A program made the position numbers and the translations under genes. 64,000 nt of DNA from a virus (lineage: Duplodnaviria; Caudoviricetes): the IMG/VR virus record IMGVR_UViG_3300043177_000122, positions 224,001 through 288,000 of that record; one strand, written 5' to 3'. The notes below the pieces were generated by a model. That model did not search any database, had not been told where the DNA came from, and saw only the letters and a program-made list of their open reading frames with translations. Positions 1,240 to 7,346 of the stretch are shown in pieces; the first letter of the stretch is position 1, and the number at the start of each line of letters is the position of its first letter.

Positions 1240-2778
1240 ATGTCTTTTATTTATGACGATCTAAAATTACTAAAATCTCTAATAGTTGCTGGGGAGAAGT
1301 CTATCCAAAAGCGTGGTCAACAAACCGATCCACAACAACTAGCTACTCTTGTATTAGCTAAGAAGATGGCTCAGCAATTGATGCGTCAAGTAGATCCTAA
1401 TTCTGTACCAAAAGCTACGGCACCTATTGGAAGTGAGTTAGGTGAAGGAGCGACACCCGAATTAGATCGTAAAAATTTAGAAAGTCTTGGAGACTTTCTA
1501 AAATGGGCCTCTGATAATGCCATTACTTGGGATGGTAAGAGAGTTGCTTACGTTTATAACGATCCAAACCAACAAGGCCCGGTTGGTTATTGGAAATTCC
1601 TTACTTATAAAATTGATCGAGAGAGGGACCCTTATGATAGAACGGCCATTCAGGTTCCAGCTTATGCTGACAAAGATGCTCTTATCAAGCTTATTACTTA
1701 TTTAAGAGACTCTCAAGAGGCTAAGACTGAAAAAGTATTTGCTGTTATGTTGGGACGCCTTATTAATCAAACAAATCAGTTTTTGGAAAAGACTGAGCAA
1801 ATTGGTCCACGTACTGAACAAAAGCCAGCCGAAGCATTCAATGCAAATGATGTAGTTGATGGTTTTAAAGATACGACCATTAACATCAAAGATCCATATG
1901 CTGGAATTCAAGAATTTATGAAAGCAACTGACCCAAATATGATTCTCAATAGAATGACTTGGAGAGATGTTAGCTCTAAAGCTGGCTTAATAGATTGGCT
2001 TCGTGGTATGAAATTTATTGGAGAAGATGGTAAACCATATGATCCAACGGCCCCAGGAGTAGACCCATGTGGAGCAATTCATGTTCTTTACTTACGTGCT
2101 AAATATCTATCTCAGTATGCTACCGATAGACTACGTCCAGGTTTTTCTAAGCTTGAGCAAGCATACTTAAAACAGATTCAAACTCTGGGCCCACAGTTTG
2201 ATTTTAATGATCAAGCTTGTGCAGTAACCAAACCAGGAACTATTACTCCTCAACAGCCGGGTCAGCCGGGTCAGCCAGGCCAGCAAGGACAAAGTGGACA
2301 GCCTGGAAAGATTAGTCCGCAAGCACTTCAGCAATTAGCTGCGCTACGACCATTCCACACAAACAATATTGATTTTAGAGAAATTAAACTATTCTTAGAT
2401 CGATACAATCAACTAGCTAACAAGCCAGGTATTGATGCTATGATTGGTCAAATTAAGCACTCTATGGACATGGCTAATCGATTAATGGGAACTGCTGACG
2501 CTCCAATTCAGATTGATAACTTAACTGGCGATCAAGTGAAGGATTGGTCAAATCAACCAATTCCATTGTTGAATATTCTAAATACCATTATTTCATACTC
2601 TGGAAGAGTATACCAGGATTTCTTTAATGAGTTCAATACTATTCTTGGAGAAGATGTCGCGAGACCAGTTGAGCAACAACTTACTGTCCAACAAACTAAT
2701 CTTGGCACAATTTTACGTGTTAGAGATAATCTTATAAGAGAAATACCAACAAGCACTACCCCTAGAGGCAAACGATGA
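1240..2778 (+). CDS. Hypothetical virion/head-cargo protein with PGQ repeat linker
   Basis: 512 aa ORF; ATGA overlap with next gene; PQQPGQPGQPGQQGQSGQPG linker. Confidence 0.6.
   Translation: MSFIYDDLKLLKSLIVAGEKSIQKRGQQTDPQQLATLVLAKKMAQQLMRQVDPNSVPKATAPIGSELGEGATPELDRKNLESLGDFLKWASDNAITWDGKRVAYVYNDPNQQGPVGYWKFLTYKIDRERDPYDRTAIQVPAYADKDALIKLITYLRDSQEAKTEKVFAVMLGRLINQTNQFLEKTEQIGPRTEQKPAEAFNANDVVDGFKDTTINIKDPYAGIQEFMKATDPNMILNRMTWRDVSSKAGLIDWLRGMKFIGEDGKPYDPTAPGVDPCGAIHVLYLRAKYLSQYATDRLRPGFSKLEQAYLKQIQTLGPQFDFNDQACAVTKPGTITPQQPGQPGQPGQQGQSGQPGKISPQALQQLAALRPFHTNNIDFREIKLFLDRYNQLANKPGIDAMIGQIKHSMDMANRLMGTADAPIQIDNLTGDQVKDWSNQPIPLLNILNTIISYSGRVYQDFFNEFNTILGEDVARPVEQQLTVQQTNLGTILRVRDNLIREIPTSTTPRGKR
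2251..2307 (+). repeat. Short tandem repeat encoding (PGQ)n linker
   Basis: cagccgggt-cagccgggt-cagccaggc and further degenerate units. Confidence 0.7.
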
Positions 2779-3878
2779 TATCCAATAGTGAAGTTAGCTT
2801 TTGTGTTGACACACTACTTGTAGAGACCGTATTAGCGGAACCAAAACTCTACAAAAAGGCTGGCTTCGTCCAAGATCTGCTTGGCAAAGTAAAAGACTAT
2901 TTTAGTCGTCAGATTGATCCTAATAATCCAGTCAAAAGTGTAATTGACATTTTGGCACCTGGCGCATTATGGTTATTATTTCAATCTATTGGAATTGGTA
3001 AGTGGGGTTTTCTACTTGCTACACTTATGGATGTATTCCATGTTGACGTAAGTGGTATGTTAACATCTCTTTGGAACAAAGTCAAAGAAATGATCGGTGG
3101 AGGACAGAAGACTTCGTCAGCAGCAGTTGATGCAGCTACTGAGTCTACTGTACAACAATTTAATGATCCCGCCACTCCACAAGAAGAGCAGCAAGGTATG
3201 ACTATCTTAAAGCAGAAACAAAATCCTACTGAAAATTCAGCAAGTGATCATAAAGTCTATAGTTCACTTGAGCTATTAAAAGATGCTAGAATGTTTAGAC
3301 TAGCTATTATAAACTATGAAGCTCAAACACTTAGACTTACTTCAGAAGGTTTTGATAAAACTGCTGGATTTTTTGGTAGTACTAAATCTAAAGGTGTTAG
3401 TTTACTAGGTAAAATTTTTGGTTGGATTATCAAGTTGGCCTTAGCTTCTGCGGGTTTAATGGTAGCTGGTGATGTTGCCAATGAAGTATTGGGTCGACCA
3501 AGCGCGTTAAGCGGCACATATCAGCGAGGCCAAGAGTCTCAAAATGAAGGAACTAGATCATCTACTCCTCCTAGAGCTACACAAACTAAATTTCCTTTCA
3601 AAGGAGATAGTCCGTTACCACAATCTTTTCCTCTAGTAAATAATGATAGTAATATTGAAAATATGCTAGTTCAATTTACTAAAGACACATACTCTGGTCT
3701 AGATGGTAAAGAAATCTTCATCCGAAACAGTCCGGCTTTTCAGGCTGTTAAAGATGATATTTCTTTCTTTAATGTACATAATCCCAATAGTGCAGCTATC
3801 TTTTTACCAAAGCATTATAGAACTAGAAGAGCTTTAGTAGATTACTATATAGATGATGTGGCTAAAAGCGCCTCATAA
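2775..3878 (+). CDS. Putative head-cargo/ejection protein with hydrophobic helices
   Basis: 367 aa ORF; YKKA and FDKTA motifs each followed by hydrophobic or amphipathic segments. Function is inference. Confidence 0.5.
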   Translation: MISNSEVSFCVDTLLVETVLAEPKLYKKAGFVQDLLGKVKDYFSRQIDPNNPVKSVIDILAPGALWLLFQSIGIGKWGFLLATLMDVFHVDVSGMLTSLWNKVKEMIGGGQKTSSAAVDAATESTVQQFNDPATPQEEQQGMTILKQKQNPTENSASDHKVYSSLELLKDARMFRLAIINYEAQTLRLTSEGFDKTAGFFGSTKSKGVSLLGKIFGWIIKLALASAGLMVAGDVANEVLGRPSALSGTYQRGQESQNEGTRSSTPPRATQTKFPFKGDSPLPQSFPLVNNDSNIENMLVQFTKDTYSGLDGKEIFIRNSPAFQAVKDDISFFNVHNPNSAAIFLPKHYRTRRALVDYYIDDVAKSAS

Positions 3879-5265: not shown

Positions 5266-5342
5266 GCTTTACAGATTTTGTAAGTAATAGGTGTAAGTAA
5301 CCATGCCCCTTGAGGCATTTGAAGATTAAATAGGAAAATACA

Positions 5343-6095
5343 ATGGCTCTAAAACTTTTACAACCAGGCATTCAGCCTTTAGGTCAGTTTGACGGTCTTG
5401 ACGCAGATGTTCTACAAACCAAGGGTGGCGAAATCGTTACTTTCACTTATGTGAACACTTCTGGTCAACCAGGCGTCTTTACCGCAGGTCAAGATCAGGC
5501 CGCATATGACCAATTTGACGGTTACGTCAACGTCTCTGGTACTTTTAAGCGTCCAGCAGTAACCAAGACCCATGCAGGCACTAACTTTGCCGCTCGTCCA
5601 TTAATGCTATCTGATGATGGTATTCAGGGATATGGCACTCTCTTCGGAGCAGTCGTTGGTGGTGCTGTTGGTCAACAGGTAAACGGTCCAAACAGCTACA
5701 CTGGTGCTGTACTTGGCCCTCACACTGCAACCGGCTCTGGCAAGACCACTTGCTGGGATAAGCCAGGTCTCTATGCAGTATCCTTGGACGCAACTCACTC
5801 CAGCCTGCAGCCAACCAACACTACCCTAACCGGCGGTGATGCTCTAGGCTTTACAACTGGTGGTCTTTTGACTCAGGCAACTAACGCTGCCACTGTTTCT
5901 TCCAACGGTTCTGCTGTTGGCTCTGGTGGTGTCGCTGTTGTTGTTGGTCGTCTAGTAGAGTTCAACACCAACCAGTCCTTGGTAACCACTCCAAATTACT
6001 TGGTTGCTGCTTTGAACAGCCCATCTGGAAACGTCTCCTCTGTACAACCAAGAGCATTCCAGTTCGCAACCATCTACTTTGCTCCACCAGCATAA
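5343..6095 (+). CDS. Capsid decoration/cement protein (putative)
   Basis: 250 aa Gly/Ala/Thr-rich ORF immediately upstream of the capsid gene, with the same biased codon usage. Positional call. Confidence 0.6.
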   Translation: MALKLLQPGIQPLGQFDGLDADVLQTKGGEIVTFTYVNTSGQPGVFTAGQDQAAYDQFDGYVNVSGTFKRPAVTKTHAGTNFAARPLMLSDDGIQGYGTLFGAVVGGAVGQQVNGPNSYTGAVLGPHTATGSGKTTCWDKPGLYAVSLDATHSSLQPTNTTLTGGDALGFTTGGLLTQATNAATVSSNGSAVGSGGVAVVVGRLVEFNTNQSLVTTPNYLVAALNSPSGNVSSVQPRAFQFATIYFAPPA

Positions 6096-6110
6096 GTAAC
6101 TGAATAAACT

Positions 6111-6171
6111 TCTCTAGCCGAGAGGCTGGGGGAGACGTAAGTCTCAAAGTCCTCACGGACTCCTCTCACCC
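6111..6171 (+). ncRNA. Candidate structured cis-regulatory RNA in the capsid leader
   Basis: Three adjacent hairpins (CTAGCC-GAGA-GGCTGG; GAGAC-GTAA-GTCTC; AGTCC-TCAC-GGACT), two with GNRA loops, plus an alternative pairing GAGAGG/CCTCTC. Confidence 0.5.
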
Positions 6172-6224
6172 TTTTAACTGTAAGATAAAGCTGGTAAGAC
6201 TGGCAAATTTTTCTAGGAGAACCT

Positions 6225-7238
6225 ATGAATATGTTTAGTGGTAAAGGCGAATTGAACGCCTCATCTTTAAAAGATGCATTGCAGGCATTGGTAAAGTATG
6301 CAGCCATTCTCGAAGAGAATGTTCCTGCCAACCAAGGTCTCGCCGGCCAACCAGCATTGAGCGATGAGAAACGCGATGAGTTAATCACTCGTGCTATCAT
6401 GACTCAGGACGGAAAGATTGCTTTAGCTCAGGCTATGGCAAACCCAATCCGTAGAAACCTAGACTACCACGGTATCGCTCGTCGTGCCTTGGTTGTTGAC
6501 CCACTACCACAGGGAGCAATTCCAACTTACGATAGAGATATCGATGTTGCCGCAGTTGTTATCTCTTCCAACGGTACAGGTCCAGAGTCCCGTGTATTCG
6601 GTGACCGTGTAGTTGTTCCTGAGTTTGAAATCTACGCCAACCCAACGGTTCGTATCGCTGAGGTAAAGCGTCGTAGATTCAACGTCATTGACCGTGCCGT
6701 TCAGAAGGCTCGTCAAGAGATTATGGCCCAAGAAGATGCTAACATCTTTGCCGCTCTTGATGCAGCTTCCTCTGTCGAGAACACTCTCACTGATATCGCC
6801 GATGCAGGTTTGATAAAGCGTGACTTGGTTGAAATCAAGTCACAGATTGAACGTTGGGACTTGGTAACCACCAAGTACTTTATGAACATCAACGAGTTCA
6901 CTGACATGCTCAAGTGGGGTTCTGGTGGTGGACAAGGTGTTGGCGGAGGAGACTTCGATCCAGTAACCATGCGTGAAGTTCTACAGACCGGTCTATATGC
7001 CCACATCTGGGGTACTGATATTATGGTATCCAAGATTGTACCTCCTGGTACGATATATGGCGTGGCAGATCCCGAATTCGTAGGAGTCATGCCAATCCGT
7101 CAGGACATTGAAGTGCTTCCTGCCGACGAACCAAAACAACTAAAATTGGGTTGGGTAGTTAGCGAAATCATCGGAATTGCTATAGTTAATCCAAGAGGCT
7201 GTGCCGCCGGAAGAAAAAGCGTAGTTATCGGGGCTTGA
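6225..7238 (+). CDS. Major capsid protein (HK97-fold, putative)
   Basis: 337 aa; AGGAGA RBS; strongly biased codons; capsid-like segments (RRNLDYHGIARRALVVDPLPQG; EFVGVMPIRQDIEV); followed by a terminator. Confidence 0.85.
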   Translation: MNMFSGKGELNASSLKDALQALVKYAAILEENVPANQGLAGQPALSDEKRDELITRAIMTQDGKIALAQAMANPIRRNLDYHGIARRALVVDPLPQGAIPTYDRDIDVAAVVISSNGTGPESRVFGDRVVVPEFEIYANPTVRIAEVKRRRFNVIDRAVQKARQEIMAQEDANIFAALDAASSVENTLTDIADAGLIKRDLVEIKSQIERWDLVTTKYFMNINEFTDMLKWGSGGGQGVGGGDFDPVTMREVLQTGLYAHIWGTDIMVSKIVPPGTIYGVADPEFVGVMPIRQDIEVLPADEPKQLKLGWVVSEIIGIAIVNPRGCAAGRKSVVIGA

Positions 7239-7278: not shown

Positions 7279-7302
7279 AAAAAGCCGCTTTCGCGGCTTT
7301 TT
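7279..7302 (+). terminator. Rho-independent terminator (probably bidirectional)
   Basis: AAAAAGCCGC-TTTC-GCGGCTTTTT after the capsid stop. Confidence 0.85.
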
Positions 7303-7346
7303 CGTTGATATATAGCAGGTGTATATACATAATTTGGACTATAACT

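Follow-up and report, generated by a model that had tools for sequence, protein, structure and literature searches.

A conserved RNA pseudoknot upstream of the capsid gene

Comparison with related phages establishes that positions 6109-6177 of the 64,000-nucleotide stretch of DNA analyzed here (the window) encode a conserved RNA that is predicted to fold as an H-type pseudoknot. The general kind of element is known, both as an intercistronic cis-acting structure and as an H-type mRNA pseudoknot, but this family is uncatalogued. The window belongs to a virus contig of 359 kb (G000:C1:224001-288000) from an uncultured phage, and the folded element is housed in the 129-nt gap between a cement-like ORF (5343-6095) and the capsid ORF (6225-7238). 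What emerges is a well-supported RNA fold, known in 40 distinct natural variants and located at the head-module junction with the highest expression.

All parts of the element lie on the + strand. Stem S1 is formed by 6112-6117 and 6126-6131 and could be extended in the window on its 5' side to 6109. Between its strands are loop 1, two C's at 6118-6119 (C in 34/40 and 33/40 sequences), and the 5' strand of stem S2 (6120-6125), which consists of the P1 loop plus two G's and pairs with 6162-6167. The S2 5' strand and the S1 3' strand abut with zero bases between them, and the S2 partner strand is 37 nt downstream. Loop 1 has 2 nt to span the 6-bp stem 2, while loop 3, at more than 25 nt, holds the hairpin P2 (6132-6145, GUAA loop), which is length-variable and dispensable, the P2-P3 junction (6146-6148) with its two near-invariant A's (6147-6148; 38/40 and 39/40), and the hairpin P3 (6148-6161, UCAC loop), with its core at 6149-6160. 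Under Pleij's rules and the usual steric rules, such loop lengths would let both helices of an H-type pseudoknot form together. Beyond S2 lies a conserved single-stranded tail (6168-6177) composed of a purine (A/G in 37/40), a pyrimidine run, UU(U) (two U's in 39/40 and 40/40), and AA; in the window it reads A-CCC-UUUU-AA, and it shows no covariation with S2. The tail is followed by an A/U-rich spacer with a GUAAG motif (6178-6189), of which GUAAGU is kept in closer relatives.

The first-pass annotation had drawn three hairpins, P1 (6114-6129, GAGA loop), P2, and P3, all of which are present in the sequence; as tandem hairpins, with P1 extended to 6112-6131, they constitute the minimum free energy fold (-26.9 kcal/mol, z = -2.5, with 2/200 shuffles as good). 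It had also recognized the complementarity of GAGAGG (6120-6125) and CCUCUC (6162-6167), correctly, but had taken the resulting long-range helix to be incompatible with P1. That exclusivity does not hold, as the helix competes only for G6124 and G6125 and at least six outer P1 pairs can coexist with it. Because both helices share only these two G's, the structure is best read as an H-type pseudoknot rather than as two exclusive states. Full P1 could alternatively be completed by pairing of the loop 1 CC with G6124 and G6125, an option available in most, though not all, sequences. The junction fold was calculated at -20.9 kcal/mol before the addition of about -6 to -9 for S1, which makes it roughly isoenergetic with the tandem-hairpin fold in the window.

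Covariation among relatives

A capsid-protein scan of IMG/VR gave 316 related stretches, of which the best 80 (88-99% identity) were kept; when the 140 nt before each capsid start was read, the element was found in about 40% of these best 80 of 316 relatives. A MAFFT alignment of 27 distinct copies (A1) was scored against the pseudoknot model, and a covariance model (R1) was built with S2, P2, and P3, with S1 left out. Loci that a scan of viral and metagenome contigs for a hairpin pattern had turned up were then added for an alignment of 40 distinct copies (A3); unrelated coding matches, which the hairpin pattern (GCUGG) also gave, were discarded. A search with R1 detected a single copy in the window (75 bits) and a single copy in the whole 359-kb contig, and in loci that have the element its position is always directly 5' of the capsid gene.

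Stem S2 was paired in 100% of cells in both the 27 and the 40 sequences, with compensatory changes at 5/6 pairs and variants including GAGUGG/CCACUC, GAGGGG/CCCCUC, GGGGGA/UCCCCC, and GGAAGG/CCUUCC. S1 was paired in 95.1% of cells in the 27 sequences and in 93.7% in the 40, though it was unmodelled in the latter alignment; three of its pairs had changed on both sides, and a U.G wobble (the alignment pair matching U6115-G6128) was retained in 32/40. P2 was 89-96% paired with 3-4 compensatory pairs, and ranges from up to about 16 bp in some relatives to complete absence in four (L073, L077, L142, and L186). P3 was paired in 76-77% overall, its outermost and innermost pairs often being open, and its three central pairs were formed in 38-40 of the 40 sequences with 2-17 double changes per pair. 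Double-sided changes were found at 16/21 pairs of the 27-sequence alignment, values that 0/500 shuffles matched, and controls in which the partner strand was slid lowered pairing to 39-55% in the same alignment. The first-pass annotation had named covariation among capsid-leader homologues as the check on its fold, and S1, S2, P2, and P3 all covary.

The conserved unpaired positions in the 40 sequences were limited to the CC, the AA, one A, and the tail (purine-pyrimidines-UU-A). Two further pairings were tested, between the junction AA and the UU of the tail and between loop 1 and the tail, but neither partner varies in sequence and covariation therefore cannot inform on them. RNAalifold applied to wider flanks returned P1 and the GCUGG hairpin only, as it cannot draw pseudoknots, and gave no helix closing the 5' flank on the 3' tail. 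Triple-helix formation by the pyrimidine tail on the purine strand of S2 was rejected by eye, since the tail does not covary with S2.

These data also bear on the proposal that the element is a two-state switch, in which full P1 with a closed tetraloop would alternate with the long-range helix and thereby tune capsid expression, the cue being a ligand, a protein, temperature, or the upstream ribosome. The tandem-hairpin and junction folds are roughly isoenergetic in the window, the conserved CC of loop 1 is able to pair with both shared G's in about 85% of sequences, and S1, 11-19 nt past the upstream gene's stop codon, is near enough to be perturbed by a ribosome that terminates there. Since the energies in the window are close, an equilibrium of two states is conceivable, though evolution has kept both helices. 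However, the helices that the first-pass annotation supposed to be exclusive are conserved together, and several relatives are unable to form the closed tetraloop: L049, L055, and L063 cannot close that of full P1 and yet keep S2, with an 8-nt loop of which 6-7 bases pair downstream, while at least one of the pairs C6118-G6125 and C6119-G6124 is impossible in about 4/27 relatives. The 3' strand covaries with the P1 loop and not with the invariant Shine-Dalgarno sequence, which is about 50 nt away and with which pairing is not conserved, leaving the switch without an expression platform; conserved unpaired bases are few and unlike a ligand pocket, P2 is dispensable, and close relatives substitute a terminator and a promoter-like motif for the element. 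The switch of the first-pass annotation is therefore not upheld, and we regard such a mechanism as unlikely. An anti-Shine-Dalgarno switch in particular was rejected, as the duplex had a median of -5.2 kcal/mol and reached -8 in 5/27, the 3' strand following S2 while GGAG is invariant. A riboswitch was rejected on this same anti-Shine-Dalgarno test for an expression platform and on the few conserved unpaired bases, which do not resemble a ligand pocket.

Genomic setting

The first-pass annotation had placed the element between decoration and capsid genes, and the second half of this description was confirmed: the downstream ORF (6225-7238, + strand) encodes a major capsid protein (phrog_2522, E = 5e-80) with 53% amino-acid identity to gp27 of Bacillus phage G. 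The first half stands only as a candidate assignment. The upstream gene (5343-6095, + strand), defined by its ORF and translation, encodes a 250-aa protein to which no PHROG or Pfam family was assigned and whose sequence shows no resemblance to that of phage G gp26 (annotated 'capsid decoration'), although by synteny it occupies the position of gp26. Its 1276 homologues are all unnamed and come from huge-phage-sized contigs of up to 511 kb. Its look-alikes in the ESM Atlas carry Phage_cement Pfam families (feature score 0.96, TM about 0.5), and an AlphaFold2 model built from a 30-sequence alignment was unusable (pLDDT 46). The product is accordingly treated as a candidate cement or decoration protein, a lead drawn from synteny and the ESM Atlas look-alikes only. 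The capsid:decoration ratio that the first-pass annotation suggested the element may set is a conjecture.

Between this gene and the knot there is a cluster of stop codons in all three frames (6093-6107, + strand; TAA 6093, TAA 6097, TGA 6101, TAA 6105), part of which sits in a weak hairpin where 6088-6090 pairs with 6100-6102. Within 6088-6107 the upstream gene's own stop codon is in the loop of this small hairpin and is followed by stops in the two remaining frames (TAAGTAACTGAATAA); the hairpin arms vary in sequence among relatives, as judged by an unscored reading by eye. A frameshift or readthrough pseudoknot, which would need a slippery site or leaky stop 5-9 nt upstream in a frame left open through the knot, was rejected on the stops at 6093-6107 and on further stops inside the element: because all three frames stop between the upstream ORF and the knot, the element is not a recoding signal.

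On the capsid side, the Shine-Dalgarno sequence AGGAG is at 6215-6219 (+ strand), and its GGAG is kept in every leader listed. In base composition the element (GC 0.47-0.51) is matched by both flanking genes (0.47-0.56), the rest of that stretch of the window being about 0.3-0.4, so the GC-rich island of the first-pass annotation dissolves once its neighbors are considered. A canonical intrinsic terminator was read by eye at 7279-7303, 40 nt past the capsid gene, consisting of an A run and GCCGC, a UUUC loop, and GCGGC and a U run; it was missed by a simple terminator scan, probably as the A-U pairs absorb the U tract.

Alternative leaders at the same site

Sorting of 72 distinct capsid leaders yielded three types. 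Type A leaders contain the knot and have neither a terminator nor a promoter-like motif. In type B leaders, a hairpin of 10-11 bp whose loop is conserved is followed by CUAUC and a small GNRA hairpin. Type C leaders contain an intrinsic terminator, then a promoter-like motif of the extended -10 type (TCTGGTAATAAT-N5-TTATT), then a small hairpin. In every type, a stable structure (knot, long hairpin, or terminator hairpin) occurs within about 10-45 nt after the cement-like gene. Relatives whose capsid proteins are 94-96% identical to that of the window carry a type B or type C replacement at the site of the knot, and capsid proteins 94-99% identical to it occur with all three leader types, from which it follows that the cassettes have been swapped among close relatives. 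This interchange at one site puts the knot in the place of a 3'-end hairpin and the sequence after the knot in the place of a fresh 5' end. Knot and type B cassette are not plain substitutes for each other, as in one relative (L041) the former is followed by the latter.

The type B cassette was seen just before the capsid start in L011 (2470-2535), L022, L031, L047, L048, L052, and L053; the loop is GAUUrAnnUU, CUAUC is invariant, and the cassette of L011 gave no Rfam match. The type C gap between cement-like and capsid genes was seen in L009, L017, L023, L028, L046, L054, L074, L075, and L087, and the cement-like gene is itself preceded by a similar motif (ATATCAATAA-N5-GTATG), with TCTGGGCATAG-N5-ATAT farther upstream. 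Some type C leaders have an extra reverse-strand ORF inserted. A reverse-strand ORF immediately 5' of the capsid gene, which may be a mobile (homing-endonuclease-like) insertion, occurs in the relatives L025 (~2165-3000), L013, L021, L038, L050, L056, L059, L069, L071, L080, L105, and L159; in L025 it is inside an 838-nt gap past the cement-like gene.

The type C leaders raise the question of whether the knot, together with the short U tract behind it, is a leaky terminator or pause site for the upstream gene. It sits where type C relatives have a canonical terminator, and two U's of the tail are invariant. The first-pass annotation had stated that there is no U-tract and that the element is not a terminator; the former was inaccurate, as a short run (U6172-6175) exists 4 bases after S2, and the latter stands. 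A canonical intrinsic terminator was rejected, as a scan for a GC-rich hairpin with at least 5 U in 8 nt starting 0-2 nt behind it gave no site at 6109-6180; 4-5 non-U bases lie between the helix and only three or four U's. Moreover, type A leaders have no promoter-like motif downstream even though strong expression of the capsid gene is required; the element is crossed by RNA-library contigs, and textbook terminators are used elsewhere by the phage, as at 7279-7303. A leaky terminator is for these reasons very doubtful.

Whichever cassette is present, almost every distinct leader examined (L001-L194) ends in a GCYRN-loop-NYYGGC hairpin, a AAAUAAUUC-like sequence, and then the Shine-Dalgarno sequence. 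In the window this universal leader hairpin is GCUGG-UAAGA-CUGGC followed by AA (6190-6204, + strand), and it was found once as a leader element. In a comparison of 30 variants, its first five pairs always form, pairs 4-6 are compensatory, and pair 3 is U.G in 29/30; the compensatory changes and the near-invariant U.G wobble are sensible only for a hairpin that pairs as RNA of the + strand. The module at 6190-6213 is a candidate 5' stabilizer or protein operator of the capsid message. The order of U-run, GUAAGU, and hairpin that follows the knot recurs in the leader of the cement-like gene itself (5276-5325), where a U-run, two GUAAGU copies 11 nt apart, and an AUGCC/GGCAU hairpin were seen, conserved in relatives. 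A promoter in the tail, with GUAAGU as its -10 element, was rejected as unconvincing, the motif being upstream of 24/429 crude genes versus about 16 expected, and a scan for a promoter motif of the TCAATAA/GGTAATAA type gave few sites.

The knot itself could instead be the operator, bound by a protein that either represses or activates translation of the capsid gene, as with the pseudoknot of the T4 gene 32 leader. Its helix sequence is conserved beyond the needs of pairing (a G-C pair is invariant in 40/40 and the U.G wobble is kept in 32/40), and from the knot on, in the direction of the ribosome-binding site, there is a stretch of A/U-rich, unstructured RNA. On the other hand, no candidate binding protein was identified, and the element is wholly absent in relatives with 94-96% identical capsids, which implies that no tightly co-evolving partner is needed for capsid expression. 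An operator function of the knot is thus decidedly doubtful, and the GCUGG hairpin, which all three leader types have, is for that reason the better candidate for an operator.

Classes considered and rejected

A search of Rfam 15 gave zero matches in 6096-6224 at E up to 10 and zero in the leaders of eight diverse relatives at E up to 1, in agreement with the first-pass annotation, which had not recognized a known RNA family. Small self-cleaving ribozymes (HDV-like, pistol, twister, hatchet, and hammerhead) were rejected on the lack of an Rfam match and on the few conserved unpaired bases, and the helix order here differs from that of the HDV-like and pistol ribozymes. A tRNA-like structure was rejected as well: ARAGORN finds none, the P3 loops are 4-8 nt without a T-loop consensus, and the tail has no CCA. 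The topology of a pseudoknot with hairpins, the 11-bp minihelix that S2 stacked on P3 would form ahead of a purine, and the CCA-adding enzyme gene that adjoins the capsid gene could all be cited in favor of a self-cleaving ribozyme or of a tRNA-like signal for processing by RNase P or RNase Z. With no Rfam match to either class, a negative ARAGORN result, no unpaired bases resembling a catalytic core, no T-loop, and no CCA, this explanation is extremely improbable.

RNA-library contigs

The RNA data are limited to a single assembled contig per site, each from a relative with 85-95% identity to the window, and RNA libraries can contain DNA; depth and uncovered stretches were given no weight. 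A 1198-nt contig spans 6095-7159, with an Illumina adapter directly at its 5' side, and a 155-nt contig bridges 6053-6208. A 309-nt contig, with no loose end, starts at 6191, the second base of the GCUGG hairpin, and an 820-nt contig ends at 6083. These contigs give weak hints that read-through RNA and ends near the element's edges both exist. Short contigs of the upstream gene were also considered as transcript-shaped assemblies and rejected as uninformative on RNA ends, as one ends inside P2 and two 5' ends include the promoter-like motif.

Proposed function

Huge phages need thousands of capsid and cement subunits per particle. Almost none of these phages has been cultured. The first-pass annotation had offered an mRNA stabilizer or processing site among its suggestions, and we infer that such a role is the best-fitting reading of the comparative data. 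In the version that we tentatively favor and consider quite possible, judging from the position of the knot and from what replaces it, the element would be an intercistronic nuclease barrier and processing element. S1 starts 11-19 nt past the cement-like gene's stop codon, which is just out of reach of a ribosome terminating there, and the knot would thus stay folded. RNase E, RNase Y, or a similar endonuclease could attack A/U-rich single strands of the type that flank it. Once the RNA is cut, the 3' end of the upstream (cement) message would be capped by the knot, which could also block 5'-to-3' decay arriving from upstream, and the capsid message would begin with the GCUGG hairpin. In this way, each message would gain a lifetime of its own without a second promoter.

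Several observations are consistent with a barrier. The knot occupies the place of a 3'-end hairpin and the sequence after it that of a fresh 5' end; the element is single-copy and always directly 5' of the capsid gene; the U-run and GUAAGU after the knot recur before the leader hairpin of the upstream gene; and the RNA-library contigs add their weak hints. Against it, phage G does without the element, having only a 25-nt gap at the corresponding site, and L041 has the knot plus a type B cassette. In addition, the barrier leaves the pseudoknot, the conserved CC and AA, and the invariant UU unexplained, because a plain hairpin suffices as a 3' cap. Indeed, no reading, barrier or rival, accounts for a pseudoknot over a hairpin, nor for the invariant UU and AA.

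A more specific version of the barrier, suggested by analogy, is that the knot might be a phage counterpart of the exoribonuclease-resistant RNAs of eukaryotic viruses, a protein-independent stop for processive exonucleases. Enzymes of the RNase J1 type would be halted from the 5' side and those of the PNPase or RNase R type from the 3' side, and a stable capsid message headed by the fold would survive whatever befalls the upstream cistron. We consider this version something of a long shot; if true, it would be the first such element described in a phage.

The presence of a terminator-promoter unit or another hairpin cassette in close relatives amounts to a natural cassette-swap experiment. 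If the nuclease barrier is true, the knot would offer synthetic operons a compact insulator and would parallel, in prokaryotes, the nuclease-resistant RNAs of viruses. If it is false, the element would still be a clean candidate for a new cis-regulatory RNA family.

Comparison with known systems

The pseudoknots of the T4 gene 32 leader and of the tRNA-like acceptor arm of TYMV are classical H-type pseudoknots, and the fold predicted here shares their main features: a hairpin loop pairs with a downstream strand, a loop 1 of 1-2 nt crosses a 6-bp stem 2, the stems abut, and loop 3 contains adenines. Like the T4 gene 32 pseudoknot, it is in an mRNA leader upstream of an A/U-rich stretch. It differs from the classical type in that its loop 3 carries one or two whole hairpins and in its location between two cistrons rather than at a 5' end, and it has no sequence or Rfam relationship to the T4 gene 32 or TYMV pseudoknots. 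The preQ1-II riboswitch (Rfam RF01054) is likewise an H-type pseudoknot with a hairpin in loop 3, found in mRNA leaders. Similar as it is in these three respects, the element here has no Rfam match to it, no conserved pocket, and a Shine-Dalgarno sequence that lies outside the knot.

In its proposed role, the element can be compared with intercistronic elements for stabilization or processing such as E. coli papBA, the malEFG REP hairpins, and the RNase III sites of T7. The plastid intercistronic expression element is another of this kind (PMC2230500). Similar to all of these, the knot is structured, intercistronic within one transcript, and flanked by A/U-rich single strands, and it is proposed to give stable monocistronic products with different lifetimes. 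The plastid, papBA, REP, and T7 elements are simple hairpins or protein-binding sites at which cleavage has been mapped, whereas the element here is a pseudoknot known from sequence comparison. A pseudoknot in the role of an intercistronic barrier would be new.

The exoribonuclease-resistant RNAs of flaviviruses also stop bacterial RNase J1 in vitro (PMC5760640). Compared on its predicted fold, the element resembles them in that a strand of a three-way junction pairs with RNA just 5' of the closing helix and so encloses the 5' strand, in a structure that would be compact and protein-independent. The element does not have the second pseudoknot, from a hairpin loop to the 3' tail, that the flavivirus RNAs have. 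A different junction strand is used here, and the 5' pairing is a stem of 6-9 bp in place of 2-3 bp.
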